The translations under genes were made by a program, and so were the position numbers. Under the pieces are notes generated by a model. It saw nothing but the letters and a program-made list of their open reading frames with translations. It searched no databases and was not told where the DNA came from. A stretch of DNA of 64,000 nucleotides from contig NW_025964365.1 in NCBI RefSeq assembly GCF_023055435.1, forward strand, positions 434,001 through 498,000, given 5' to 3'. This stretch comes from Haliotis rufescens. Taxonomy: Eukaryota. Below, piece by piece: positions 4,991 through 55,143 of the stretch (position 1 is the first letter of the stretch; each line of letters begins with the position of its first letter).

Positions 4991-7900
4991 TTAGCTTGCA
5001 CGTATTCCCTTCACGAATTTAACTGTGTGTCGGTTCTCGTGCGTCATTTCCCACTTCTCCATATGGGGGCCCTGGATCGTGGTTTCGAAGGCATCGTCCT
5101 ACAACACATAGGGTTAATATACTACGACACCTTCCCAATGCCCGTTCATCTACCATTATCACCAAACGTGGTTAGGCCTGAGAAGTTGTTCGTTACGCCA
5201 TTTGTCTTTTAGGGAAACATTATTTACCGATCGCGGACGTATTTTAAGATTAGATTTTAAGAAGTATGTTATGTTACCTAAAAGAATTTTTAAATAAGGT
5301 CGGTTCATGATGGATCACACGAAGCCATTAAAAAGTGGTCAAATGTCACAAATGTTATATTTGCGATAACACTTCCTTAGTAAAGTATAGATTCTAGTAC
5401 TTTGGGGGGTTGAGTCCAATCCGGACTTACTTATTTACACTTGTCATAGGGGTACACAAAGTACGTGATCTCGACAACCAGTTGTCGGACTTTCATTTTA
5501 GAAAGGGTTAGGTCGCTGACTTTGTGTGCTGGCGACTAGGTGCCTCATTCTGGCAGTGTGGCTTCGATACCGGATAGGACTCAACCCAAAAAAGTACTAG
5601 AATCTGTACTTCACAAAAGAGTGCTTTTAGCAATATTCCAGCAATATCACGGCGGGGCACATCAGAAATAGGATTCACACATTGTACCCATGTCGGGAAT
5701 CGAACCCGGGTCTTCGGAGCGAACGCTGTAACCACTAGGCTACCCGACCGCCCCACTTCACAAAGGAAGCGTTATCCTAAATATCACATTTGTTACGGTT
5801 CATGATAGGTCTACAAGCAGTTTTTGTAAAGCACTTAGATTTACTGAACGAATAAGTCTTATCCCCGTTTCCAATGGGACTCATGAGTCATATGGGTACT
5901 CGTCAGCTTGACGTAAGCTATCTAATCATACAACCTGTCATGGACTACACAACAAGCAATTGTTAAAAAGCAGATTTGAAGATAGACATCACATTACAAG
6001 GATGATTATTTGATGAGGTTATGTGGGAATATAAATCATTTACAGAAAAATTATTATTCTAATGTGTAATTGGGGAAATATTGAAAAGATGTTCGAATTC
6101 GATTTTTAAAATGGCGCCTAATTGAAAAAGGCTGTTTACGGCCACGACACAATCAGTTTTGTTCAAAATGTAATGAAATTAAGCATTTGTTTTTCGAGTT
6201 GTGGCATTAAACACAAATATATATGTTCCTTGTTTGCTATAATTAAATGTTGACCTTTTTATTGCTGTGCTCATATGGTCTCTCTCAAAATACTCTTATC
6301 ATTGGTTCTGTAATCTTCTCCTTTGAAATTGCCATACCGAGGGAGCTGCACATCAATTTGGCACGTATGTTTCACCTTTTCATGACACCATATTTTGTTT
6401 CAATGGGGCCCCTAGTATGTTGGCTATATCGGCATGTTCATGTACATATGTTTACTATGTTTACATGTTCAAGTGTCTGTTTTCATTGTTTCAATGTTAC
6501 ATGAACCTGTATGTTTACAATGTTTCCATGTTCACCAGTAAGTTTACAATGTTTCCATGTTCATGTATATTTACAATGTTTCCATGTTCATGTATGTTTG
6601 CTATGCTTCCATGTTCATGTATGTTTACTATGTTTACATGTTCATGTATGTTTGCTATGTTTCCATGTTCACCTTATGTTTACTATGTTTCCATGTTCAT
6701 ATATGTCTACTATGTTTCCATGTTCATGTATGTTTACACTATTTCCATGTTCATGTATGTTTACACTGTTTCCATGTTCACTTTATGTTTACAATGTTTC
6801 CATGTTTACCAGTAAGTTTACAACGTTTCCATGTTCACCAGTAAGTTTACAATGTTTCCATGTTCATGTATGTTTACTATGTTTCCATGTTCATGTATGT
6901 TTACAATGTTTCCATGCTCATGTATGTTTACTATGTTTCCATGTTCATGTACGTTTACAATGTTTCGATGTTCACCTATGTTTACTATGTTTCCATGTTC
7001 ATGTATGTTTACTATGTTTCCATGTTCATGTATGTTTACTATGTTTCATTGTTCATGTATGTTTACTATGTTTCCATGTTCATGTATGTTTACTATGTTT
7101 CCATGTTCATGTATGTTTACTATGTTTCCATGTTCATGTATGTTTACTATGTTTCCATGTTCATGTATGTTTACTATGTTTCCATGTTCATGTATGTTTA
7201 CAATGTTTCCATGTTTACCAGTAAGTTTACAATGTTTCCATGTTCACCAGTAAGTTTACAATGTTTCCATGTTCATGTATGTTAACAATGTTTCCATCTT
7301 CATGTAAGTTTACTATGTTTACATGTTCATGTATGTTTACTATGTTTCCATGTTCATGTATGTTTACTATGTTTCCATGTTCATGTATGTTTACTATGTT
7401 TCCATGTTCATGTATGTTTACTATGTTTCCATGTTCATGTATGTTTACTATGTTTCCATGTTCATGTATGTTTACAATGTTTCCATGTTCACCTTATGTT
7501 TATTATGTTTCCATGTTCATGTAGGTTTACTATGTTTCCATGTTCATGTATGTTTACACTGTTTCCATGTTCACTTTATGTTTACAATGTTTCCATGTTC
7601 ACTTTTTGTTTTCAATGTTTCCATGTTCATATATGTTTACTATGTTTCCATGTTCATGTATTTTTACACTATTTCCATGTTCATGTATGTTTACACTGTT
7701 TCCATGTTCACTTTATGTTTACAATGTTTCCATGTTTACCAGTAAGTTTACAATGTTTCCATGTTCACCAGAAAGTTTACAATGTTTCCATGTTCATGTA
7801 TGTTTACAATGTTTCCATGTTCATGTATGTTTACTATGTTTCCATGCTCATGTATGTTTAATATGTTTCCATGTTCATGTACGTTTACAATGTTTCTATG

Positions 7901-10900
7901 TTCACCTTATGTTTAATATGTTTCCATGTTCATGTATGTTTACTATGTTTCCATGTTCATGTATGTTTACTATGTTTCCATGTTCATGTATGTTTACTAT
8001 GTTTCCATGTTCATGTATGTTTACTATGTCTCCATGTTCATGTATGTTTACTATGTTTCCATGTTCATATATGTTGACTATGTTTCCATGTTCACCTTAT
8101 GTTTACAATGTTTCCATGTTCACCTTATGTTTACTATGTTTCCATGTTCATGTACGTTTACAATGTTTCGGTGTTCACCTGCATGTTTGCTGTATTTTCA
8201 TGTTCATGTATGTTTACTATGTTTCCATGTTCATGTATGTTTACTATGTTTCCATGTTCATGTATGCTTACTATGTTTACTATGTTTACTATGTTTCCAT
8301 GTTCATGTACGTTTACAATGTTTCGGTGTTCACCTGCATGTTTGCTGTATTTCCATGTTCATGTATGTTTAATATATTTGCATGTTCACCTGTGTGTTTA
8401 CTATATTTGCACGTTCATCTCTATGTTTACTCTGTTTCCATATTCACCTGTATGTTTACTATGTTTCCATGGTCACCTGCATGTTTACTATGTTTCCGTG
8501 TTCACCTGTAAGTTTACAATGTTTCCACATTCACCTGTATGCNNNNNNNNNNNNNNNNNNNNNNNNNNNNNNNNNNNNNNNNNNNNNNNNNNNNNNNNNN
8601 NNNNNNNNNNNNNNNNNNNNNNNNNNNNNNNNNNNNNNNNNNNNNNNNNNNNNNNNNNNNNNNNNNNNNNNNNNNNNNNNNCAATAACCACATCTATCCT
8701 GGGATTACTATCGATACCTTTATAAGTAATATTCACTCTTTCCTTCTTCGTATTATTCAAACCAGACTAAATAAACAATACCTCTTTCTCTTCGTTCAAC
8801 ACTTCGGTTTTGTGTCTGTCCACAGACTCAAATGGCGACCAGTCAATCTTGTGGTCAGGCTTGGAGGGATCTCTCATCAGAATCCCCTCCTTCAGGCCGT
8901 AGAAGCCGTAAGGTTTAGCGGGATCCTGCCAACGCAGGTCCAAGCTCCACCGAATCTCGTTGGAAACATTCGGCAGACTGCATAAAATTAATATTTATAC
9001 CGTTATTTCCAAAATTAGGCGAATATGTCAATTGAGTTATATGGTTAAACGTATGTATTATGTATGCGCATGTATGTATATCAATAATAATAATTATAAT
9101 ACAATGCGTTACCTTGGTAAGTACTACGTTACCTTCTATGGGGGATCATGTTGTTGATCAAAAGCATCCCGCCGTAGGGAATTGGGCACAGTTTGATGTC
9201 TTTTTCCAGATCCACACCTGGAACAATACAGCAGTGTCTGATATCAACTCACTGGCACTCACCTTGGCACTCAGCTGACACTCGGTCATGTTCTGTCGGT
9301 GTAACATGATTCACAAGTCGGTATTACACAAATTTAACTCGCCTGATATAACAGTTAAACATATGTCTTGCGTAATATACATATTTAAGGCAGTGCAATA
9401 AGAATGGGATTCCCATCTTACCCAGAGTCTTCACCATCTCCTCCTCTGCAAGTTCCACATACCACGTGTCCGCCCAGCAGCACGTGTGACGACAGATGCG
9501 ACCTGGTCGGTGACCGCCGGATACCACCTGGGAACCAAGGAGGTTTGAATTACACCAAACAGTGAATGACATGTATAGTGCATTGGCTTTTCCCGAATAT
9601 CTTTGTTGGAAATGAATGAGTGGGTGACTTGGGTTTAAGCTTTGAGTAGTATCCTAGCATATCACGACGTGTCAGCTTAATGTGGGAGTAAAGGCCGAAG
9701 TGATGCAGGTCTCGGACGTTTACCACTTTGGTGAAACCCCGAGTACGGGTATGGTGCTAACAAACCTAGAAATAAAATCAGGGCGAACCGGGATGGGAAT
9801 TTCATACATTTCTTGCGTGCCGAATGGACAATTGGATTTATTGACGCTTTTTTCAGTATTTCAGTCATACGTTGGCGTGTCACACTAATGCATGAGAAAA
9901 GGCCAATGATTCTGTTTTAGTGAAGCCCATGATCACGGACTGTTTGCTATTTGCTAAGGGTCGTAACTGAAGGATTTGGACAAATGACAAGCGGACCCAG
10001 TTTGTTTCTTGAGACAATCCAGTGATTGACATCATGAGTATCAATGTAAGCAATTTGGATACGATGACATGCATCAACCAAGTCAGCGTCCCTCACCACT
10101 CGATCCCGTTAGTTGCCTCTTACAAGTATGGATTGCTGAAGACTTATTCTCTACCTTGATCTTCACGGGTCGATTAATACATAATATACAGTCTACATAC
10201 ATGATATTTAAATCTATGTATCGTTACTAACCTCCATGCATCCATTTTGAGCATTGGCATCTAGAAGCGGAACCCAGGCCGCTGGTTGCAGGACTTTGTA
10301 AGACTCGTTGTCAAGGTAACCAGAATCTTTAATGAAAACAAATCGTCTTATATCGTTATCAACATCAGCATTGTTGGAACGATCTGAAATAAATGTGTAT
10401 TAAATAAAGCAAAAAGTGAGTTCGTTGTAAGGTTACTATATGTTGAGATACAGCCTCTATTCACCTTGATGCCACGGCACAGTAGTGGCGTTGTTCTTTT
10501 GTGTTTTTGCCCGCAGGTTCCAAACTGGATGTCCGGCTATTTTGGGTCCAATCAGTTGTTCAACCAAATTCAAGAGTCGGTCATTGCTCCAAACTGCACG
10601 GAAGGCCTATCATTCGAAAGAAAAGTAGTCATGAGGGAGTGCGTTGGATTTGACGCCGCTTTGAACAGTATTCCAGCTTAATGTGGGAGGAAAGCCCGAA
10701 GTGATGAATGTGTCAGACGTTTAACGCTTTGATGAAACCCACAAGCACGGGTAATGTGCTCACAAACCTAGAAACATAATCGGGGCGAACAGGTATTCTA
10801 AGCCACAATCACAGGTTTCTGGCGTGCCCAAGGAACGCAACCCTGCGGCGCCTTAGACGACTAGGCCACCGGTGCTCCCAATTCGTAATGAACACATTGT

Positions 10901-15923: not shown

Positions 15924-18900
15924 TCATGCCTTGTGCCAGCTGCTGTAAGACTTTCCCTTCACGAGTTTGGCTGTGTGTCGGTTCTCGTGCGTCATTTCCC
16001 ACTTCTCCATATGGGGGCCCTGGATCGTGGTTTCGAAGGCATCGTCCTACAACACATAGGGTTAATATACTACGACACTTTCAATATGCCGGGTCATCTA
16101 CCATTATCACCAAACGTGGTTTGGCCTAGTTTGTTCGTTACGCCATTTGTCTATAAGTGAAACATTATTTACCGATTTTAAGATTAGATTTTAAGAAGTA
16201 TGTTATGTTACCTGAAAGAACCTTTAGATAAGGTCGGTTCATGATGGAACACACGAAGCCATTAAAAAGTGGTCAAATGTCACAAATGTTATATTTGCGA
16301 TAACACTTCCTGAGTAAAGTAAAGATTCTAGCCCCATCCGGACTTGCATATTTACACTTGTCAGAGGGGTACACAAAGTACGTGATCTAGACAACCAGTT
16401 GTCGGACTTTCATTTTAGAAAGGGTTAGATCGCTGACTTTGTGTGCTGGAGATTAGGTGCCTCACTCTGGCAGTGTGGCTTCGATACCGGATAGGACTCA
16501 ACCCCCCAAAAGTACTAGAATCTGTACTTCACAAAAGAGTTCTTTTAGCAATAATCCAGCAATATCACGATGGGGCACATCAGAAATGGGATTCACACAT
16601 TGTACCCATGTCGGGAATCGAACCGCGTCTTCAGCGTGACGAGCGAACGCTGTAACCACTAGGCTACCCGACCGCCCCACTTTACAAAGGAAGCGTTATC
16701 CCAAATATAACATTTGTTACGGTTCATGATAGGTCTACAAGCAGTTTTTGTAAAGCACTTAGATTTACTGAACGAATAAGTCTTATCCCCGTTTCCAATG
16801 GGACTCATGAGTCATATGGGTACTCGTCAGCTTGACGTAAGCTATCTAATCATACAACCTGTCATGGACTACACAATAAGCAATTGTTAAAAAGCAGATT
16901 TGAAGATAGACATTACATTTCAAGGATGATTATTTTGATAAGGTTATGTGGAAATATAAATCATTCACACAAAAATCATTATTCTAATGTGTAATTGGGG
17001 AAATATTGAAAAGATGTTCGAATTGGATTTTTATAATTGCGCCTAATTGAAAAAAGGCTGTTTACGGCCACTACATAATCAGTTTTGTACAAGCAGTTTT
17101 GTTTTGCGAGTTGTGGCATTAAACACAAATATATGTTCCTTGTTTGCGATATTTTTTTTTCCTGTGCTCATATGGTCTCTCTCAAAATACTTTTATCCTT
17201 TTTCACCTTATTCACCTTTTCATGACACCATATTTTGTTTCAATGGGACCCCAAGTATGTTTACTATATCGGCATGTTCATGTTTACTATGTTTACTATG
17301 TTTCCATGTTCAAGTGTTTGTTTTCTATGTTTCAATGCTACAATAACCTGTATGTTTACAATGTTTCAATGTTCACCAGTACGTTTACAATGTTGCCATG
17401 TTCACCTGCATGTTTACAATGTTTCCATGTTCACCTGTATGTTTACACTGTTGCCATGTTCATGTATGTTTACAATGTTTCCATGGTCATGTATGTTTAC
17501 TATGTTTCCATGGTCACCTGCATGTTTACTATGTTTCCGTGTTCACCTGTAAGTTTACAATGTTTCCACATTCACCTGNNNNNNNNNNNNNNNNNNNNNN
17601 NNNNNNNNNNNNNNNNNNNNNNNNNNNNNNNNNNNNNNNNNNNNNNNNNNNNNNNNNNNNNNNNNNNNNNNNNNNNNNNNNNNNNNNNNNNNNNNNNNNN
17701 NNNNNNNNCCTCCAGTGTCCTAGGATTACTATCGATACCTTTTATAAGTAATATTCACTCTTTCCTTCTTCGTATTATTCAAACCAGACTAAATAAACAA
17801 TACCTCTTTCTCTTCGTTCAACACTTCTTTGGCGGTTTCGTGTCTGTCCACAGACTCAAATGGCGACCAGTCAATCTTGTGGTCAGGCTTGGATGGATCT
17901 CTCATCAGAATCCCCTCCTTCAGGCCGTAGAAGCCGTAAGGTTTAGCGGGATCCTGCCAACGCAGGTCCAAGCTCCATCGGATCTCGTTGGAAACATTCG
18001 GCAGACTGCATAAAATTAATATTTATACCGTTATTTCCAAAATTAAGCTAATATGTCAATTGAGTTATATGGTTAAACGTATGTATTATGTATTCGCATG
18101 TATGTATATCAATAATTATAATTATAATACAATGCGTTACCTTGGTAAGTACTACGTTACCTTCTATGGGGGATCATGTTGTTGATCAAAAGCATCCCGC
18201 CGTAGGGAATTGGGCACAGTTTGATGTCTTTGTCCAGATCCACACCTGGAACAATACAGCAGTGTCTGATATCAACTCACTGGCACTCACCTTGGCACTC
18301 AGCTGACACTCGGTCATGACAAAACCCAACTTGTGATGTTCTGTCGGTGTAACATGATTCACAAGTCGGTATTACACAAATTTAACTCGCCTGACTTACC
18401 TTTGGTATATCGACGTTGTCCTTGCACAAATTCTGTTCATGTAATGTTGTGTTTATGGTAGTCAAGAAGGCTGCTGTCACAAGCGTTAAAGGTGTCGAAA
18501 GTATACTCGTTTCTGTTACCCCTCTACACAGATAACACTGGCAATTATCCAGAAGCATTTACCCAAGGGGTGATTTTGAACCGTTTTGATAAATGAGAAA
18601 CCTATATTAAGGAGGATGTAGAGATATTTGACTTTTGTATATTTGTCCCTACTAATTACATTTTACAATTGCCAAGGAGTGAAAACGTGTTACTAGTATA
18701 GGATATTTCTTAGGTGCATTGATGAATGTAGTACCCTCCATGTCCTTTTGAATGCATACAATATTCACATACAATATTCACCAGTGAATGGGTATCGTAT
18801 ATGGATCAGTGTTTGTAAAGATAATACAATACGTAACGACAGTTAAACATATGTCTTTCCTAATATACATATTTAATTCAGCGCAATAAGAATGGGATTC

Positions 18901-23739: not shown

Positions 23740-24370
23740 AATGAAATCCCTTCCCCTGCCACAGATTGATGAAAGAAACAGTGAATTTTATAAGCAAAGT
23801 GTTATGCTTATCGTTTAATATCTCAGGACGACCTTTTACTTATCTCAAATAGTACATATTAACATTATGCCATTATATATAAAATGATGACAATTATCGG
23901 GGTACAGTTTTGTTGCTAAATATTTGAAACAGGTGTAGTTGTATTTTGTTCAGAAACTGGAAACTCAGAAGCTTCTGTATATCAGTTAATTGAGTGAGTG
24001 AGTGAGTGAGTGAGTGAGTGAGTATGGTTTTACGCTGCTTTTAGCAATATTCCAGCAATATCACGGCGGGGGACACCAGAAATGGCTTCACACATTGTAC
24101 CCATGTCGGGAATCGAACCCGGGTCTTAGGCGTGACGAGCCAACGCTTTAATCACTAGGCTACCCGACCGCCCCTATATCAGTTAATTGAGTTACATGTG
24201 TGAAGCCATAGAAAACAAAGAACGCTGTGGCATATATAAATGGAAAAACAAGCCGACACCTAACAGTGTTGGTAAATGACTCTGAAAACACTGTATTTGA
24301 ACGTGGGCGTTCCACAAGGCTCAGTTCTTGGTCCGTTCCTATTAATTGTCTATATAAATATCCTTAAATA
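23740..24370 (+). mobile_element. Highly decayed CR1-group LINE RT remnant, interrupted by a SINE
   Basis: DNYRGTVLL at ~23889 (cf. NYRPISLL), EAIENKE at ~24200 and VGVPQGSVLGPFLLIVYIN at ~24303-24359. Confidence 0.6.
23996..24174 (-). mobile_element. SINE family A, full length, young
   Basis: TSD TATATCAGTTAATTGAGT (23978-23995, 24175-24192). Confidence 0.93.
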
Positions 24371-24833
24371 ATAAATATAAATATACCTGATTATTTTAAC
24401 TGTTTTATAAAATTATTTACCAATATTAATGCCGCCTCCCTTAAACGAGCATCAAAAGATATTCTTTTCTCAAAAAGCGTTTGAATCAAATTTTGAAAGT
24501 ATAACTGATCGGGCCATGCGGTGGCTGACATACAATGTCGCGTTTTGTCGTGTCAGTGTCCTAGATTCGTGGATTCTAATCTTAGAATCGGCCTGGTTAT
24601 TACACTTGGTTTGTCAGCACTATACCCATTCACGTTCACCATGGTAAACAGTGGAAACCGTCTCCCATCTTCGTCACTTTGGGAGGTCCTCCCATATGAT
24701 GAATGCCTACTGCTATGTATCTGCACCACATAATTGTGTTCACCGCGAAACTCGACATACGACACTTTCAGTTAATGTCGCCAAAATGAATCAGATTCTA
24801 ATGCCCTGTCATCAGAAAGAGGTGTTAATATTG

Positions 24834-29639: not shown

Positions 29640-29676
<37 letters not shown>

Positions 29677-30618
29677 CTACTACTGCTGCTGCTGCTACTG
29701 CTTACCGCCTCCGTGGTCGTGAGGTGGAGCGTCCGCCCGGAGAGCGGAAGGTCCGGGGTTCGATCCCCGGCCTCGTTATACCAAAATACGTTACTACTTC
29801 TACCACTACTATTACTGCCCCCCCCCCCCCCCCCCCCCTCTCCCCTTACTACTACTACAATGCTGCTGCTACTACTACTTCTCCTACTACTGTTGTTACT
29901 ACTACAGCTACTACTACTTCTACAACTACTACTACCACTACTGCTCCTCCACCTCCTCCTACTACTAATACTGCTGCTGCTGTTGCTGCTGCTACTACGA
30001 TTACTACTACAACTCCTACTACTACTGCTGCTACTACTACTACTACTGCTACTCCTCATGCTACTACTACTACTCCTACTACTACTGTTGCTACTACTAC
30101 TACTCCTCCTCCTCCCCCGCCTACTACTACTACTGCTACTCCTACTTCTGCTGCTGCTACTACTACTACTCCTACTACTGTTGTTACTACTACAGCTACT
30201 ACTACTTCTACAACTACTACTACCACTACTGCTCCTCCACCTCCTCCTACTACTACTACTGCTGCTGCTGTTGCTGCTGCTTCTACGATTACTACTACAA
30301 CTCCTACTACTACTGCTGCTACTACTACTACTACTGCTACTCCTCATGCTACTACTACTACTCCTACTACTACTGTTGCTACTACTACTACTCCTCCTCC
30401 TCCCCCGCCTACTACTACTACTGCTACTCCTACTTCTGCTGCTACTACTACTACTACTACTACTCCTACTACTGTTGCTACTACGTCTACTACTACTACT
30501 ACTGCTACTACGACTACTACTACTACTACTACAACTACAACTACAACTACTTCTACTACTAGTACTGCTGCTACTACTTCTACTACTACTACTTCTCCTA
30601 CTACTGCTGCTTTTACTT

Positions 30619-30664
<46 letters not shown>

Positions 30665-30677
30665 TACTGGTACTACT
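29640..30677. repeat. Imperfect (CTA)n trinucleotide array with an internal 288-bp duplication and a SINE head at 29704-29790
   Basis: Marker strings recur at 29883/30171 and 30111/30399 (offset 288). 29704-29790 matches the 5' end of the SINE at 61957. Confidence 0.9.
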
Positions 30678-31106: not shown

Positions 31107-31692
31107 CTTCGCTTCTTTATGCTATTAAATAAGAGCGACAGAACCCTTTCCAATATACTGTGCCTGAGTGGGGTATTCATTTAAGCTGCGGCATGGTATC
31201 TCAGTGGGCTAACACTATAAATCAGCATCAGTCCATACTAGTACAAGCAGCCACACACCTACCTACGCACACGTACATGCACGTCGCTTCGCTTCTTTAT
31301 GCTATTAAATAAGAGCGACAGAACCCTTTCCAATATACTGTGCCTGAGTGGGGTATTCATTTAAGCTGCGGCATGGTATCTCAGTGGGCTAACACTATAA
31401 ATCAGCATCAGTCCATGCTAGTACAAGCAGCCACACACCCACCTACGCACACGTACATGCACGTCGCTTCGCTTCTTTATGCTATTAAATAAGAGCGACA
31501 GAACCCTTTCCAATATACTGTGCCTGAGCGGGGTATTCATTTAAGCTGCGGCATGGTATCTCAGTGGGCTAACACTATAAATCAGCATCAGTCCATACTA
31601 GTACAAGCAGCCACACACCTACCTACGCACACGTACATGCACGTCGCTTCGCTTCTTTATGCTATTAAATAAGAGCGACAGAGCCCTTTCCA
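31107..31692 (+). repeat. 180-bp tandem repeat x3.25, containing the 3' part of the family-C SINE
   Basis: Lines 31141, 31321 and 31501 are near-identical. About 134 bp of the unit matches 62126-62296. Confidence 0.93.
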
Positions 31693-32726: not shown

Positions 32727-32766
<40 letters not shown>

Positions 32767-32830
32767 CATTAAAAAGATAGTGGTCAAGAGATTCATTAAA
32801 GTGGAATGAAAAGATGGCTTTTAAGACCAA

Positions 32831-35800
32831 TCAGATAGTCCTGTGATGCTCCATGTATGCACTGATCAGCTCAGTCAGATAGTCAGGTGCTGCTCCATGT
32901 ATGCACTGATCAGCTCAGTCAGATAGTCAAGTGATGCTCCATGTATGCACTGATCAGCTCAGTCAGATAGTCAAGTGATGCTCCATGTATGCAGTGATCA
33001 GCTCAGTCAGATAGTCAGGTGCTGCTCCATGTATGCACTGATCAGCTCAGTCAGATAGTCAAGTGGTGCTCCATGTATGCACTGATCAGCTCAGTCAGAT
33101 AGTCAAGTGGTGCTCCATGTATGCACTGATCAGCTCAGTCAGATAGTCAAGTGGTGCTCCATGTATGCACTGATCAGCTCAGTCAGATAGACAGGTGATG
33201 ATCCATGTATGCAGTGATCAGCTCAGTCAGATAGTCAAGTGGTGCTCCATGTATGCAGTGATCAGCTCAGTCAGATAGTCAAGTGGTGCTCCATGTATGC
33301 ACTGATCAGCTCAGTCAGATAGTCAAGTGGTGCTCCATGTATGCACTGATCAGCTCAGTCAGATAGTCAAGTGATGCTCCATGTATGCACTGATCAGCTC
33401 AGTCAGATAGTAAGGTGATGCTCCATGTATGCACTGATCAGCTCAGTCAGATTGTCAAGTGGTGCTCCATGTATGCACTGATCAGCTCAGTCAGATAGTC
33501 AGGTGCTGCTCCATGTATGCACTGATCAGCTCAGTCAGATAGTCAAGTGGTGCTCCATGTATGCACTGATCAGCTCAGTCAGATAGTCAAGTGGTGCTCC
33601 ATGTATGCACTGATCAGCTCAGTCAGATAGTAAGGTGATGCCCCTTGTATGCACTGATCAGCTCAGTCAGATAGTCAGGTGCTCCATGTATGCACTGATC
33701 AGCTCAGTCAGATAGTCAGGTGCTGCTCCATGTATGCACTGATCAGCTCAGTCAGATAGTCAAGTGGTGCTCCATGTTTGCACTGATCAGCTCAGTCAGA
33801 TAGTCAAGTGGTGCTCCATGTATGCACTGATCAGCTCAGTCAGATAGTCAGGTGCTGCTCCATGTATGCACTGATCAGCTCAGTCAGATAGTCAAGTGAT
33901 GCTCCATGTATGCACTGATCAGCTCAGTCAGATAGTAAGGTGATGCTCCTTGTATGCTCTGATCAGCTCAGTCAGATAGTCAGATGCTGCTCCATGTATG
34001 CACTGATCAGCTCAGTCAGATAGTCAAGTGATGCTCCATGTATGCAGTGATCAGCTCAGTCAGATAGTCAAGTGATGCTCCATGTATGCAGTGATCAGCT
34101 CAGTCAGATAGTCAGGTGCTGCTCCATGTATGCACTGATCAGCTCAGTCAGATAGTCAAGTGGTGCTCCATGTATGCACTGATCAGCTCAGTCAGATAGT
34201 AAGGTGATGCTCCTTGTATGCACTGATCAGCTCAGTCAGATAGTCAGGTGCTCCATGTATGCACTGATCAGCTCAGTCAGATAGTCAGGTGCTGCTCCAT
34301 GTATGCACTGATCAGCTCAGTCAGATAGTCAAGTGGTGCTCCATGTATGCACTGATCAGCTCAGTCAGATAGTAAGGTGATGCTCCTTGTATGCACTGAT
34401 CAGCTCAGTCAGATAGTCAGGTGCTCCATGTATGCACTGATCAGCTCAGTCAGATAGTCAAGTGATGCTCCATGTATGCACTGATCAGCTCAGTCAGATA
34501 GTAAAGTGGTGCTCCATGTATGCACTGATCAGCTCAGTCAGATAGTCAAGTGGTGCTCCATGTATGCACTGATCAGCTCAGTCAGATAGTCAGGTGCTGC
34601 TCCATGTATGCACTGATCAGCTCAGTCAGATAGTCAAGTGATGCTCCATGTATGCAGTGATCAGCTCAGTCAGATAGTCAAGTGATGCTCCATGTATGCA
34701 CTGATCAGCTCAGTCAGATAGTCAGGTGATGATCCATGTATGCAGTGATCAGCTCAGTCAGATAGTCAAGTGATGCTCCATGTATGCAGTGATCAGCTCA
34801 GTCAGATAGTCAAGTGATGCTCCATGTATGCACTGATCAGCTCAGTCAGATAGTCAAGTGATGCTCCATGTATGCACTGATCAGCTCAGTCAGATAGTAA
34901 GGTGATGCTCCATGTATGCACTGATCAGCTCAGTCAGATAGTAAGGTGATGCTCCTTGTATGCACTGATCAGCTCAGTCAGATAGTCAGGTGCTGCTCCA
35001 TGTATGCACTGATCAGCTCAGTCAGATAGTCAAGTGGTGCTCCATGTATGCACTGATCAGCTCAGTCAGATAGTCAAGTGGTGCTCCATGTATGCACTGA
35101 TCAGCTCGGTCAGATAGTCAGGTGATGCTCCATGTATGCACTGATCAGCTCAGTCAGATAGTCAGGTGATGCTCCATGTATGCAGTGATCAGCTCAGTCA
35201 GATAGTCAAGTGGTGCTCCATGTATGCACTGATCAGCTCGGTCAGATAGTCAGGTGATGCTCCATGTATGCACTGATCAGCTCAGTCAGATAGTAAGGTG
35301 ATGCTCCTTGTATGCACTGATCAGCTCAGTCAGATAGTCAAGTGATGCTCCATGTATGCACTGATCAGCTCAGTCAGATAGTCAAGTGATGCTCCATGTA
35401 TGCAGTGATCAGCTCAGTCAGATAGTCAAGTGATGCTCCATGTATGCACTGATCAGCTCAGTCAGATAGTCAGGTGCTGCTCCATGTATGCACTGATCAG
35501 CTCAGTCAGATAGTCAAGTGATGCTCCATGTATGCACTGATCAGCTCAGTCAGATAGTCAAGTGGTGCTCCATGTATGCACTGATCAGCTCAGTCAGATA
35601 GTCAAGTGGTGCTCCATGTATGCACTGATCAGCTCAGTCAGATAGTCAAGTGGTGCTCCATGTATGCACTGATCAGCTCAGTCAGATAGTAAGGTGATGC
35701 TCCATGTATGCACTGATCAGCTCAGTCAGATAGTCAAGTGGTGCTCCATGTATGCACTGATCAGCTCAGTCAGATAGTCAAGTGATGCTCCATGTATGCA

Positions 35801-38458
35801 CTGATCAGCTCAGTCAGATAGTCAGGTGCTGCTCCATGTATGCACTGATCAGCTCAGTCAGTCAAGTGGTGCTCCATGTATGCACTGATCAGCTCAGTCA
35901 GATAGTCAAGTGATGCTCCATGTATGCACTGATCAGCTCAGTCAGATAGTCAAGTGATGCTCCATGTATGCACTGATCAGCTCAGTCAGATAGTCAGGTG
36001 ATGCTCCATGTATGCACTGATCAGCTCAGTCAGATAGTAAGGTGATGCTCCTTGTATGCTCTGATCAGCTCAGTCAGATAGTCAGGTGCTGCTCCATGTA
36101 TGCACTGATCAGCTCAGTCAGATAGTCAAGTGATGCTCCATGTATGCAGTGATCAGCTCAGTCAGATAGTCAAGTGATGCTCCATGTATGCAGTGATCAG
36201 CTCAGTCAGATAGTCAGGTGCTGCTCCATGTATGCACTGATCAGCTCAGTCAGATAGTCAAGTGGTGCTCCATGTATGCACTGATCAGCTCAGTCAGATA
36301 GTAAGGTGATGCTCCTTGTATGCACTGATCAGCTCAGTCAGATAGTCAGGTGCTCCATGTATGCACTGATCAGCTCAGTCAGATAGTCAGGTGCTGCTCC
36401 ATGTATGCACTGATCAGCTCAGTCAGATAGTCAAGTGGTGCTCCATGTATGCACTGATCAGCTCAGTCAGATAGTAAGGTGATGCTCCTTGTATGCACTG
36501 ATCAGCTCAGTCAGATAGTCAGGTGCTCCATGTATGCACTGATCAGCTCAGTCAGATAGTCAAGTGATGCTCCATGTATGCACTGATCAGCTCAGTCAGA
36601 TAGTAAAGTGGTGCTCCATGTATGCACTGATCAGCTCAGTCAGATAGTCAAGTGGTGCTCCATGTATGCACTGATCAGCTCAGTCAGATAGTCAGGTGCT
36701 GCTCCATGTATGCACTGATCAGCTCAGTCAGATAGTCAAGTGATGCTCCATGTATGCAGTGATCAGCTCAGTCAGATAGTCAAGTGATGCTCCATGTATG
36801 CACTGATCAGCTCAGTCAGATAGTCAGGTGATGATCCATGTATGCAGTGATCAGCTCAGTCAGATAGTCAAGTGATGCTCCATGTATGCACTGATCAGCT
36901 CAGTCAGATAGTCAAGTGATGCTCCATGTATGCACTGATCAGCTCAGCCAGATAGTCAAGTGATGCTCCATGTATGCACTGATCAGCTCAGTCAGATAGT
37001 CAAGTTATGCTCCATGTATGCACTGATCAGCTCAGTCAGATAGTAAGGTGATGCTCCTTGTATGCACTGATCAGCTCAGTCAGATAGTCAGGTGCTGCTC
37101 CATGTATGCACTGATCAGCTCAGTCAGATAGTCAAGTGGTGCTCCATGTATGCACTGATCAGCTCAGTCAGATAGTCAAGTGGTGCTCCATGTATGCACT
37201 GATCAGCTCGGTCAGATAGTCAGGTGATGCTCCATGTATGCACTGATCAGCTCAGTCAGATAGTCAGGTGATGCTCCATGTATGCAGTGATCAGCTCAGT
37301 CAGATAGTCAAGTGGTGCTCCATGTATGCACTGATCAGCTCAGTCAGATAGTCAGGTGATGCTCCATGTATGCACTGATCAGCTCAGTCAGATAGTAAGG
37401 TGATGCTCCTTGTATGCACTGATCAGCTCAGTCAGATAGTCAAGTGATGCTCCATGTATGCACTGATCAGCTCAGTCAGATAGTCAAGTGATGCTCCATG
37501 TATGCAGTGATCAGCTCAGTCAGATAGTCAAGTGATGCTCCATGTATGCACTGATCAGCTCAGTCAGATAGTCAGGTGATGCTCCATGTATGCACTGATC
37601 AGCTCAGTCAGGTAGTCAGGTGCTGCTCCATGTATGCACTGATCAGCTCAGTCAGATAGTCAAGTGATGCTCCATGTATGCACTGATCAGCTCAGTCAGA
37701 TAGTCAAGTTGTGCTCCATGTATGCACTGATCAGCTCAGTCAGATAGTCAAGTGGTGCTCCATGTATGCACTGATCTGCTCAGTCAGATAGTCAAGTGGT
37801 GCTCCATGTATGCACTGATCAGCTCAGTCAGATAGTAAGGTGATGCTCCATGTATGCACTGATCAGCTCAGTCAGATAGTCAAGTGGTGCTCCATGTATG
37901 CACTGATCAGCTCAGTCAGATAGTCAAGTGATGCTCCATGTATGCACTGATCAGCTCAGTCAGATAGTCAGGTGCTGCTCCATGTATGCACTGATCAGCT
38001 CAGTCAGTCAAGTGGTGCTCCATGTATGCACTGATCAGCTCAGTCAGATAGTCAAGTGATGCTCCATGTATGCACTGATCAGCTCAGTCAGATAGTCAAG
38101 TGATGCTCCATGTATGCACTGATCAGCTCAGTCAGATAGTCAGGTGATGCTCCATGTATGCACTGATCAGCTCAGTCAGATAGTCAAGTGGTGCTCCATG
38201 TATGCACTGATCAGCTCAGTCAGATAGTCAAGTGGTGCTCCATGTATGCACTGATCAGCTCAGTCAGATAGTAAGGTGATGCTCCATGTATGCACTGATC
38301 AGCTCAGTCAGATAGTAAGGTGATGCTCCATGTATGCAGTGATCAGCTCAGTCAGATAGTCAGGTGCTCCCTGTAGTCACTGATCAGCTCAGTCAGATAG
38401 TCAGGTGCTGCTCCATGTATGCACTGATCAGCTCAGTCAGATAGTCAGGTGCTGCTCC
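32831..38458. repeat. 44-bp satellite array, ~128 copies
   Basis: Unit TCAGATAGTCAAGTGATGCTCCATGTATGCACTGATCAGCTCAG, period 44. Variation is mostly confined to one short patch (caagtgatg/caagtggtg/caggtgctg/aaggtgatg). Confidence 0.98.
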
Positions 38459-39060
38459 AAATGAATTTGTGCATCTCCTACTGTCAACTGGCTGTGTGAC
38501 TTTTATTGAGCAGCAGCTGATTACTCCGAACGACCATAGCCTCTGTCCTCTCATCGTTTAGCTGGAGCGTTTGGGCAGTCATCCATTCTTTCATTTCTTG
38601 TGTGCAACTTCAGTGTAAAAGTAACTGAAGTTACTTGGTATTCGTCCGCGTAAAATTAAAGGCTAATGTTATGCTTGTCGGTAGTATCCCCAAGGGGACA
38701 CATATATTCTAGTAACAAAATTGGGACGAGGACTCAACCCTGCGGGACCCCAAGGGGTTCAGTTCTCCGCTTCCACTTTAACAGACTGGGATCTGCCAGC
38801 CAGGTAGGACATGAAGCAGTCAAATGCCATTCCTTCGATTCCAGTCTGATCCTTCAGTGTGGAGAGGAGTTTGTCAAGACGATATTATTAAAGGCATGGC
38901 TCAGATGCCATGGACATGGTACGCCATATTACCGGAATCAACTGTATATCTCAGACCATTTAGCACCCTCAGTAACGGCGTCTCGTGCTGCGGTGATTGG
39001 AATTTGTCCAAAAGCTAATGTTTGGAGATGTCTCTTTGTCGAGGATTGTGATCATACATT
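38459..39060 (-). mobile_element. Decayed L2/CR1-group LINE ORF2 (reverse transcriptase) remnant
   Basis: Minus-strand translation with stops and frameshifts: LLDKFQS, ETPLLRVLNGL..VDSG, LSHAFNNI, GVPQG*VLVPILLLEYMCPLGD (38751 down), FYADE (38655 down), CTQEMKEWMTAQTLQLNDERTE. These match L2-type RT motifs in the right order. Confidence 0.85.
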
Positions 39061-40736
39061 CGCACTGATTGTGATCATTGGTTTGCCAACACACTGATTT
39101 GCACATCAACAATAATCAAAATTAATAGTGAGAACCTTCCACAATTTAATGAAACTGTCATATATCCAAATACCAGTGACACATATCTTTGATTCGTTTT
39201 GACAATTCATTCCTGTCTGTACTGATTTTTCACCATGTCTGCATGAAGAAGGAAGTCTTCGATAGCTCGTATAATTCATTCAGTATTTATAGTCAAAATG
39301 GAGATATAAATGTACGAAAACTGTAAAGCCTTTATTATTTTTGCAGTGTTAATATATGTTATTTGAACAAAACATAATATATCAAATATCAAAAATATTT
39401 ATTAGCTATTCTTACCAACGACGTGGGGAACGTTAGCCAACATCAGCAACGGGGATGGCATTGTGGGCGAAGTAGCTGCAGCCCGTTATGCCATGACAGG
39501 ATCCGCAGAGCGTGGTTTAGAATCCCCTTGTTTCCTCAATTCCGGTTATTCTCTGGCGTTTAATGTGTATTTGATTCAAGCCATTTAAACCCAGATTGTT
39601 ACGTATGCGATGTATATCAGTCAAGCGGCTGACTAATAAACCCGATGGGAACACTGCCCCAGTTTGACGGAGTACAACTTTAAGTACAATGTTTCGAAAT
39701 GGACTTACACCAGGGCATGGAACATAACCCTCCTTTAAGATGACACTCCGTGATATCGCTGGGAATGAAAGCGGCATAAAACAGTGTGAAGCTAAATTAA
39801 ACTGACAAAACACTTTCCATAATCATAAGAAATCAAAAGTGAAGTCTATTGTATGATTCCGTGTTTGTGGATCACTATCAATGATCAATTATCAAATAGA
39901 TATGATATCATGGGTTCGCAAACAAGAATCCTGCTCAAACGGTGGCACTCGTCACAACCACATGCAAAGGCAAGTAAGGAAAATGAAAAATAAATACGAG
40001 AACATACGATCAAAATAGGGAATAACCATATTTTTTGTCATTGATCAAATTTCGTAATGTCCTCCATGTGTCTACCATAAAACGTTTGGAACCATAAATA
40101 TTACGATTCTAATCGAACAACGTTTGAGGAAGAGTTGTCGTATGACCCTCTTTGAAATTGAAAAACAAATCAATGTAAAGCTGAAACCATTTTATTCGGT
40201 GATCTTGTGAAAACATTTCTTCATGTGTGACCAAGAGGCTTACCATACATAAAAATAAACGAAATATAGCTTAAGGTTCACACGCTGACCCAGGACATGA
40301 GTTATAGACAGGCGATACCACCCACCGGCCCCACCGGTGGCGACACACTATTGTAGTACTGTACATGGTACAACCCTTCTTATCTTGCAGGTTATCAGGT
40401 GTTTGTTCCGCGTCAGTAAATTCAATCAATAGTACGACAAAGCTTATAACACGCCTGCTCAACCGGTCACAAAACTAACCACACCTCGTACCTAGCGATC
40501 TAGGTGTTGTTCAGCTATTAACGTGAAATTGACTATAGACAGGCAAGCTATTGATCATAGTCGTTGTTGGAATGTATTGCTCGAATATCATGGCTATGAT
40601 CATTAAAAAAGAGAGTCTTTTAAAAGAGAACAACAGCAAGTCATGTCAGAAACATATGGAATACTGTAAGGGACATTCTCGCGATCTCGCATTATCGCGA
40701 CATCGACTTCTGGATAGGAGCGAAATATGCCAATAA

Positions 40737-48833: not shown

Positions 48834-50192
48834 ATGGCGGGAGTGTTTGATAGTCTGAAGGGTGCCGGTGCCATTGGCATCGTTGTTCTTGTTCTTGCTC
48901 TTTTAGGGAACATATGTAACTGGATAGCCTTTACTACCACAGCATGGGCTCGTCAATTTACAAATACAAATAAGGAGACTTTCACTGGCAACGGGCTGTG
49001 GAGAATATGTGGAACAGGCACAGATACCGGCTTCGGTAAAGTTGTATCTGCATGCACCCAGATAGACGGAACCAATCTCGGTAAAGTATATTATCCTTTT
49101 ATCAAACAACATTCTATTATAGATATATATATTATATTTGATTAGAGTTTTTTCTATTTATGGGGTGATTTATGGGGGAATATGTTCGGACAATGACCAT
49201 AGCTATGCTAATAGTAAAACCCGGGAAACAAGGATGCACCAAGAACATAGCTGCTTCAATATGTTCAAAAAACATTGGCTCTTTGGACACATTAATTATA
49301 ACGTCGTTCGCCTGTCACGCCGAAGATCAGTAGGTAAGAGTTTCTGGTTTGGGTTTCAGCGTATTATGGCGCTGTTCAGGCTTTGGTATCAATTGGATTT
49401 CTGGGACTCAACGCAATGTGCCTCATCATCATCCTCAAGATGTTCACAAAGCAGTGTGCCGACGTCTCCGACATCGATAAAGTCAACGGCATTCAAGCTA
49501 TCGTTACAGGTATGGCGTCAAACAACTCACACTAACATTATTGATTCAGTTCGGTTTGACCTGTACAAGAAGTAAACAATACCTGTAGACATTTGTACTG
49601 TCCTCTTTCCCATATCATTCATGTTTGCAATGTTCATCAATATTTTGCATTGATGCATTTTTTGTGTTACCTCATGATAAAACGTTGACCTAATTATGTG
49701 GAAACATCGTATGAACACTATCAATTCCCAGGTGTGTTTTTGTTTTTTGTTTTAAGACAATACGATTTGATAACTGACAATTGCTGATATTTAAGTGACA
49801 CGAGCAGACATCACTATATTTGAAATGAGTATAATGCATGTTTCTAGTTAAGCCTCCTACACTAACGTATTTATCTTTCATACCATAGCCTAAATTATTT
49901 TGTGTCTACACAAATGTAATTATGTAACAAGGAGCGTAAATTGAATAAGCCAGTAAGGGCTGTTTACAAATCCCTTTTATTTCCAGGTGTTCTTTACTTG
50001 ATCGGCATCATAATATTCGGTGCGGAATACGGTAATGGAGGCAAACTACGTGCTGCCATCGGTGGCACTGTCGTGGACGGCGACCTGGGCTACTCATTCA
50101 TCTTGGCTGTGTTCGCCATGGTGTTGGAGATCGTTGTCGGCGTTGTTCTGCTTGTGACCGGCCTCAAAGGTGGATCTGTGGCCGCCAAATAG
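48834..50192 (+). CDS. Claudin/PMP22-family tetraspan protein, copy B, 3 exons, 200 aa
   Basis: Exons 48834-49080, 49360-49509, 49987-50192. Intact frame; W...NGLWRIC...C and LGYSF motifs. Confidence 0.87.
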
Positions 50193-53670: not shown

Positions 53671-55143
53671 ATGGCGGGAGTGTTTGAGAGTCTGAAGGGT
53701 GCCGGTGCCATTGGCATCGTTGTTTTCGTTCTTGCTCTTATAGGGAACATTTGTAATTGGATAGCCTTTACTACCGCAGCATGGGCTCGTAAATTTACAA
53801 ATACAAATAAGGAGACTTTCACTGGCTACGGGCTGTGGAGAATGTGTGGAACAGGCACCGATAGTGTTGTATCTGCATGCGCCCAGATTGACGGAACCAA
53901 TCTCGGTAAAGTATATTATCCTTTTATTAAACAACATTCTATTATATAGATATATGTTATATTTGATTAGAGTTTTTCTATTTATGGGGTGATGTATGGT
54001 GGTAAATGTTCGGACAATGACAATAGCTATGCTATAATAGTAAAACCCGGGAAACAAAGATACATGTATCGTGAAACCAAGCCCATAGCTGCTTCAATAT
54101 GTTCAAAAAACATTGGCCCCTTTGGGCAGATTAATGATAAATCGTGTCGCCTGTCACGCCGAAGATCAGGAGGTAATGGTTTATGGTTTGGGTTTCAGCG
54201 TATTATGGCGCTGTTCAGGCTTTGGTATCAATTGGATTTCTGGGACTCAACGCAATGTGCCTCATCATCATCCTCAAGATGTTCACAAGCAAGTGTGCCG
54301 ACGTCTCCGACATCGATAAAGTCAACGGCATCCAAGCTATCGTTACAGGTATGGCGTCAAACAACTCACACTAACATTATTGATTCAGTTCAGTTTGACC
54401 TGAACAAGAAGTAAAAGAAACATGAAGAAAATTGTTTTAACCTCTTTCCCATATTATTCATCTTTTTCCCGTTGGTAATGTTTATCAATAAATTGCACTG
54501 ATGCATTTTTGTCAGCTTATAACAATTTGTATTTAGTACCAAAACATATTGACATAATTATGTGGAAACTCAGGCTGAAGTTACGTTTGTGTTTCAATAT
54601 ATATACTCGTCCCGGTCGTATGAACACTGTAACAGGTATATTTATGTTAATAATAATTTTAAAACTATACGAATGGTTAACTGACAATTGCTGATAATTA
54701 GGTTGCATGTGTACACATCACTTTATTTAAAATGAGTATAATGTCTGTTTCTAGTTTAGACTCCTAAACTAACGTGTTATTGTTTCATACCATAGCTTAA
54801 ATTATTTAAAACCTTGAAGTTTTTACGTCTACACAAATGTATTTATGTAACAGGGAGTGTAATTTGAATAAGCCAGTAAGGCCTGTTTACAATCCCTTTC
54901 AAGTAAAGTTGAATAAAATATGTTTAAACTGTATCATTTCCAGGTGTTCTTTACTTGATCGGCATCATTATATTCGGTGCGGAATACGGCAATGGAGACA
55001 AACTTCGCAATACATCCATTGCCGTGGATGGCGACCTGGGCTACTCATTCGTCTTTGCTGTGTTCGCCATGTTGTTGGAGATCGTTGTAGGCGTTGTTCT
55101 GCTTGTGACCGGCCTCAAAGGTGGATCTGTGGCCGCCAAATAG
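53671..55143 (+). CDS. Claudin/PMP22-family tetraspan protein, copy C, 3 exons, 194 aa
   Basis: Exons 53671-53905, 54199-54348, 54944-55143. Relative to copies A/B it has in-frame 12-nt (loop 1) and 6-nt (loop 2) length differences. Confidence 0.9.

Follow-up and report, generated by a model that had tools for sequence, protein, structure and literature searches.

An array of about 5.6 kb in the window, the 64-kb stretch of DNA analysed here (positions 434001-498000 of the 1.9-Mb contig C587, genome 1.33 Gb), consists of a 44-bp monomer that is almost certainly a slice of the CR1/L2-group LINE family whose remnants lie on both sides of it. The preliminary description had assigned the monomer and both flanks to one such family, on the same strand and in the right order, and this assignment was confirmed, as was the size of the array (32831-38459, minus strand, 128.5 copies with 94% matches). 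The array is held by at least four related organisms, and further arrays of the same segment occur at two other loci of the genome.

The parental LINE family

Upstream of the array on the minus strand lies a decayed reverse transcriptase (RT) of a CR1/L2-group LINE copy (38460-39048), interrupted by stops and frameshifts. It aligned with family copy C583 in an nhmmer search (E 9e-50). The decayed RT described from the letters alone is real, with the motifs quoted for it scattered over three frames. A search with L078, a related and better-kept LINE of the same genome that matches PF00078, identified 107 related proteins. The long ones carry PF03372/PF14529 as well as PF00078, giving the full-length relatives the AP endonuclease and RT that mark the host class. 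An ORF2 profile was built from 22 full-length LINE proteins (850-1150 residues) out of the 107 relatives. This profile identified the RT domain in the window flank, with RT pieces at positions 549-745 of 968 and E values of 3e-7 to 5e-11 for those at 608-745, and gave nothing under E 1.5 on two control flanks. A Pfam search of the short open pieces of the window recovered RT in 0 of 3. The endonuclease part is missing from the window copy, and sequence 5′ of its RT remnant gave no LINE match. Two side observations concern related elements: L078 (197-1860, on C1) contains a short insertion near 1075-1230, and a small RT piece of another LINE lies on the plus strand of the window at 24288-24371 (E 5e-6 to the ORF2 profile).

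The host is a CR1/L2-group LINE; the narrower label L2-like, used in the preliminary description, is tentative. None of the 107 protein hits was a named reference element. L2A and L2B are paraphyletic with Crack and Daphne according to the available text of PMC10294476.

The C-terminal order expected of ORF2 is retained in the window, with the monomer downstream of the RT domain at profile positions 884-902 and LKSHLF after it; the last unit runs in frame into GLKSHLFIPL*, as had been reported. Among the 107 relatives, LHWLP was present in 107 (a count partly owed to the query), G.AP.YL in 36 and LK[TS].LF in 51. LHWLP falls within the deleted part of the window copy and is retained in C583. 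The ORF2 end with LKSHLF and the start of the 3′ UTR (32764-32827, minus strand) matched the family profile with E 6.5e-8, and in a separate shuffle test 0 of 300 shuffles scored as high as the real sequence. The copy ends about 40 nt past the ORF2 end with no short 3′ UTR and simple-repeat tail; the family tail has been lost and a (TCTG)n tract (32727-32765) comes next. Family copies C223 and C1 terminate in (ATT)n. Both ends of the window copy are decayed.

BLASTN with the 5′ flank found one other copy, C583 (70-74% identity), which joins the RT part to one worn monomer through sequence missing from the window, and copies C68a, C1 and C46a connect the monomer with the ORF2 end. Among 18 aligned family loci, 8 hold one recognisable monomer in an equivalent context, the monomer-bearing single copies being C583a, C68a, C1, C46a, C323a, C68b, C79 and, in part, C334. 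In C223 the monomer is split by an inserted stretch of about 350 nt (L035, 1640-2000), and the others span only the part 3′ of the monomer. The LINE part was free of tandem repeats at all 18 loci, and a monomer dimer was present in 0 of the 8 single copies. The family comprises some 20 recognisable copies in 1.33 Gb, the best of the others being 69-80% alike, and no young copy was found.

Units, junctions and further arrays

The 127 whole units of the window array fall into 27 types and are mostly 44 nt long (119 units, with six of 41 nt and two of 40 nt). The monomer given in the preliminary description is present and is not the commonest unit, ranking third with 18 of 127. Translated in the register of the LINE, the slice reads QCIHGAAPDYLTELI, and 44 is not divisible by three. 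In single family copies the slice QCIHGAAPDYLTELI continues with SDY, so the final AY of the peptide first quoted is a product of the tandem junction. One 41-nt edge unit (38342-38382, minus strand) begins with CAGTGACTACA, the LINE's own 3′ continuation, and an identical unit occurs in the array on C13 described below. A block of 48 units (2102 bp) is duplicated as a higher-order repeat (33757-35860 and 35859-37962), with 29 differences in 2104 sites, and 36 of 79 unit pairs at an offset of 48 are identical. The 98.6% identity of the two blocks shows later growth of the window array, unless it is an assembly artefact. A hairpin as the cause of amplification was rejected (z from -0.71 to +1.65 in 7 of 7 folds).

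Neither junction with the parental sequence is intact. At the 5′ junction (38454-38465, minus strand), the RT remnant meets a first unit shortened by 11 nt at its start, and about 378 nt of LINE are absent; the distance from the last shared RT block to the monomer is 384 nt in C583 and 6 nt in the window. At the 3′ junction (32822-32834, minus strand), a shortened last unit meets the ORF2 end with about 165-180 nt of LINE absent, the corresponding distance being about 166 nt in C68a, about 182 nt in C1 and 2 nt in the window. C46a and C68b are also shorter here, through deletions of their own. The collinearity reported earlier therefore holds for the order of the parts and not for their contiguity. 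Because both junctions are out of register, the birth of the array itself is not preserved at the window.

The same 44-bp monomer forms a second array on C13 (84 units, 3.6 kb) in unrelated surroundings. A genome search with an exact 31-nt pattern gave 120 matches and, among the matches listed, all were on C587 and C13. C13 retains an in-register 5′ junction, a 25-nt motif with four genome hits (three single copies and C13; control 0). Perhaps 45 nt more of LINE follow on this side, a weak gapless signal equalled by 20 of 1450 offsets. LINE sequence beyond the C13 junctions was found neither by shuffles (278 and 84 of 300 scored as high) nor by the profile, and no LINE 3′ part lies within 20 kb of the array. 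That C13 is the other haplotype of the window was rejected, as the 50 kb around C13 share only dispersed repeats with it. These 50 kb (34130001-34180000) hold 18 tandem arrays of period at least 20, against 6 in the 64-kb window.

The C13 array is centred on the ancestral unit and is the more diverse, with 41 types among 83 units as against 27 among 127. Three unit types are letter-identical in the two arrays, including the 41-nt edge unit with its three linked changes, whose components occur in 4, 10 and 29 of the 83 C13 units and together once in the window. The linked pair 19C+23T is found in both, common in the window and rare in C13, and no fixed difference separates the arrays. Mean substitutions are 2.1 within the window, 2.8 within C13 and 3.3 between them (about 7.6% of 44). 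The two 44-bp arrays probably share one origin, and we infer for their units either this common origin or later exchange. The diversity, ancestral centre and kept 5′ junction of C13 would fit its being the older site.

A third array, on C501, consists of 62 copies of an overlapping 52-bp slice and continues in register into 200 nt of the LINE 3′ part (E 1.7e-24; 0 of 300 shuffles). Its central unit, based on the 45 in-register units out of 60, departs from the family majority at 6 of 52 sites, five of them third codon positions. It is likely a sister lineage of separate birth. Parental sequence in register was thus found on the 5′ side only of C13, on the 3′ side only of C501 and on neither side of the window array.

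A 26-nt core allowing up to three mismatches gave 274 matches genome-wide, of which 126, 84 and 59 fall in the three arrays; the remainder are three known single copies and two unplaced. A genome-wide satellite was rejected on this distribution (269 of 274 core matches in three arrays), though more diverged arrays could escape the search. The 44-bp unit is hence present at two loci and the 52-bp unit at one. The preliminary description had named two findings that would speak against it: a second locus with unrelated flanks was found, and a monomer from a different family was not. With about 12 kb in three arrays of 1.33 Gb, as read from an assembly (assemblies may under-represent arrays), this is not a classical abundant satellite.

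Several further repeats were observed in the window. At 31107-31692, 1.1 kb from the array, a 180-bp unit is repeated 3.3 times with 98% likeness; it is cut from a dispersed repeat matching 20 single places in the 217 kb examined and is a second TE-slice amplification near the 44-bp array. Related 27- and 29-bp arrays with nearly equal downstream sequence (6508-8541 and 17288-17578) perhaps belong to a dispersed element carrying a minisatellite. A pair of similar stretches, each about 450 bp long and almost equal in translation (49123-49575 and 53971-54414), is either a local duplication or a dispersed repeat. At 29640-30677 lies a tract of (TAC)n type that shows a higher-order periodicity of 288 bp.

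Age and origin of the array

Parts of the 5′ flank are present in 20 of 24 sequencing runs listed, from organism A and organisms B-D, and the junctions were compared in short-read contigs of four runs, one per organism. The 3′ junction is spanned by contigs of B, C and D (32774-32889, 32776-32862 and 32774-32858), and the B contig continues through a tandem join. One contig of C (38409-38721) crosses the 5′ junction and continues past the first tandem join. At this junction the contig of B reaches 15 nt across and that of D comes to its end; under a rule of 31 letters on each side, the 5′ junction is spanned in one of the three other organisms. Loose contig ends from all four organisms contain the 52-bp join, and those of C also the C13-type junction. 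It follows from the spanned junctions that the birth and at least the 3′ deletion predate the split, and the array is very probably older than the divergence of the four organisms. The amplification had been called recent, which is contradicted by junctions with a tandem join in other organisms. Homogeneity of the monomers, taken earlier as a sign of recency, reflects later growth (94% identity, 98.6% between blocks) and not the birth.

The flanks of the other organisms differ from the window by 3.3-5.7% (five long pieces), which dates the split only loosely because haplotypes within A differ at 12 of 182 sites. Both haplotypes come from run X5 (organism A) at 38794-38975, and most listed letters of the second one agree with B, as either an old shared polymorphism or introgression would explain. 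The same run has no contig cover at 32776-32823, and such a hole proves nothing. Another 430 nt of flank (38706-39137) are missing from contigs of B and D, so deletions are ordinary at this locus. Summed contig depth over the monomer was about 35,000, 5,800, 1,700 and 1,000, against 13-43 on the flanks; this hints at smaller arrays in B-D, depth being no copy number.

The units appear to have changed less than the flanks. The central 44-bp unit, picked after the fact, shows 0 of 49 differences from the majority of single copies, as against 10 of 64 in the 3′ flank of the window (Fisher P 0.005), the majorities being drawn from 8 or 9 copies, some recruited by likeness to the monomer. The commonest units differ at 2 of 49 sites (two commonest against the 3′ flank, P 0.065), and the 52-bp unit, a lineage that departs from the majority anyway, at 6 of 52 as against 19 of 67 in its flank (P 0.04). 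A late birth in an already decayed copy is therefore unlikely, and an early birth requires array change slower than neutral turnover predicts. An early birth fits the repeats described in the available text of PMC3389668, which start in young elements, and slow unit change would fit "frozen" satellites, a term in titles cited by PMC10048060, whose available text also reports weaker homogenisation at array ends.

It is possible, if somewhat unlikely, that a 60-bp stretch within the coding end of the LINE has given birth to minisatellites repeatedly and that the arrays act as time capsules, with turnover purging changed units. Should this speculative reading hold, the arrays would keep coding sequence of extinct LINE lineages while the single-copy flanks decayed by 16% and 28%, and the known ancestor and dated orthologues would make a biased, conserving satellite turnover directly testable. 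A hotspot was not established as proven fact: with one array chosen in advance, a second birth among some 11 other copies has an estimated chance of about 1 in 11. The 216,582 bases examined hold 29 other arrays.

Direct repeats bound the unit in a single copy. In C79, CAGTG occurs twice, 44 nt apart, within an 11-nt repeat with two mismatches (CAGTGCATACA / CAGTGACTACA), and the 52-bp unit has GGAGC at both ends; five bases are the lower limit of the 5-20 bp considered. These family copies often show 9-of-11 matches at other spacings as well, and the direct repeat therefore accounts for the register and not for amplification at this spot.

We tentatively favour an array begun long ago by slippage duplication of a 44-bp slice in this LINE copy, then copied to C13, with its edges deleted. 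The CAGTG words 44 nt apart would have mispaired in a copy still near the family sequence and doubled the slice, and slippage and unequal exchange could then have produced a longer array with variants. An early piece with little 5′ flank may next have been copied to C13, and two edge deletions, of 378 and about 170 nt, would have followed at the window. These steps would all precede the split of organisms A-D, and later growth would include the 48-unit block duplication. The window is preferred as the birthplace because LINE sequence lies on both sides and chance insertion at a homologous spot would be negligible for a family with so few copies in 1.33 Gb. The original claim of a slice of this very copy thus holds for the family and only tentatively for this copy as the birthplace, since C13 shares variants and retains the 5′ junction. 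No function is proposed; the array is regarded as neutral, self-amplifying DNA.

An unlikely alternative has the array born elsewhere, at C13 or in a lost younger copy, and copied in by homology-guided, error-prone break repair that deleted both sides. This would be consistent with junctions that are deletions ending within terminal units, a host flank that has moved further from the family majority than the central unit, and the greater diversity and kept 5′ junction of C13; the parts of the shared edge unit are also frequent at C13 and come together once in the window. Homology guidance should, however, leave at least one in-register junction; moreover, no young copy was found (best other family copies 69-80% alike), no LINE 3′ part was detected up to 20 kb from C13, and 19C+23T is common in the window and rare in C13. 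Retrotransposition of an element already carrying a few tandem units, giving a long copy at the window and a short 5′-truncated copy at C13, appears distinctly unlikely. The same register, near-consensus seed and different flanks agree with it, many family copies, like C13, have their start 15-80 nt upstream of the monomer, and the route is named for LTR12 repeats in section 3.3 of PMC3389668, in its available text. With arrays about 7.6% apart as against 26-30% between host and C583, however, hardly any change could have accrued in either array, no dimer occurs among the 8 single copies, and C13 lacks the 3′ end that retrotransposition requires.

Independent birth of the two 44-bp arrays, in the same register through the same direct repeat and with units exchanged later, seems similarly doubtful. 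The 52-bp array shows that the segment was amplified at least twice, and C13 may represent a separate short copy, but the shared linked variants and lack of fixed differences demand that the later exchange ran both ways. Highly improbable is the version first proposed, a recent amplification at a single locus between intact parental flanks: 94% unit identity and the 98.6% identical block duplication do indicate recent growth, yet they are set against a second locus, deleted junctions and a tandem join in other organisms. Slippage in this LINE copy followed by transfer to C13 remains, tentatively, our preferred reading.

Comparison with known tandem repeats

In a search of open-access text, neither this repeat nor any L2-derived satellite of this animal group was the subject of a listed paper. 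The process is known, and the locus is a well-documented case of LINE-ORF2-derived tandem repeats. It was first presented as a rare snapshot of satellite origin, a view not supported here, as both parental junctions are deleted and such cases have already been published. By itself the locus adds little to what is known, and its value is that of a test case: single copies reveal the ancestral unit, overlapping slices have likely given rise to arrays twice independently, and the locus is shared by four or more related organisms. It can be asked directly whether units diverge from the ancestor at the neutral rate and by what route arrays reach a second locus, questions for which three arrays with a readable ancestor are better suited than a single locus.

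The closest likeness is to human TE-derived minisatellites. The available text of Ahmed and Liang (2012, PMC3389668) reports 7,276 tandem repeats cut from TE copies in the human genome, 601 of them from L1, including 300 minisatellites flanked by direct repeats of 5-20 bp (the Haber and Louis model) and 185 multi-locus clusters, with hotspot regions in AluS. These repeats began in young elements and later grew by local duplication. As here, repeats are sliced from inside TE copies, with direct repeats and multiple loci. The human cases in that text mostly have two or three units, whereas the present arrays have 128, 84 and 62; unlike them, the present arrays derive from coding DNA of a low-copy, long-dead family, and related organisms date the junctions.

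Satellites from LINE-1 ORF2 include PROsat of Phodopus and Pvc 20 of the seal, and the available text of the review by Zattera and Bruschi (2022, PMC9659126) also lists chicken HinfI, from part of ORF2 and the 3′ UTR of CR1, and the cetacean common satellite, from the L1 3′ part. As in the present case, their monomers stem from a non-LTR retrotransposon, namely from its ORF2 or its 3′ part. The link described there is likeness of the monomer or a part of it, whereas here the entire short monomer is a slice that is still flanked by remnants of a parental copy. The large tandem repeats related to mouse L1 form kilobase arrays of partial ORF2 and 3′ end at several loci (PMC3218096, available text). 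They are similar to the present arrays in deriving from part of a LINE ORF2 and occupying several loci, and differ in their large, low-diversity monomers and in coming from an abundant L1 family.
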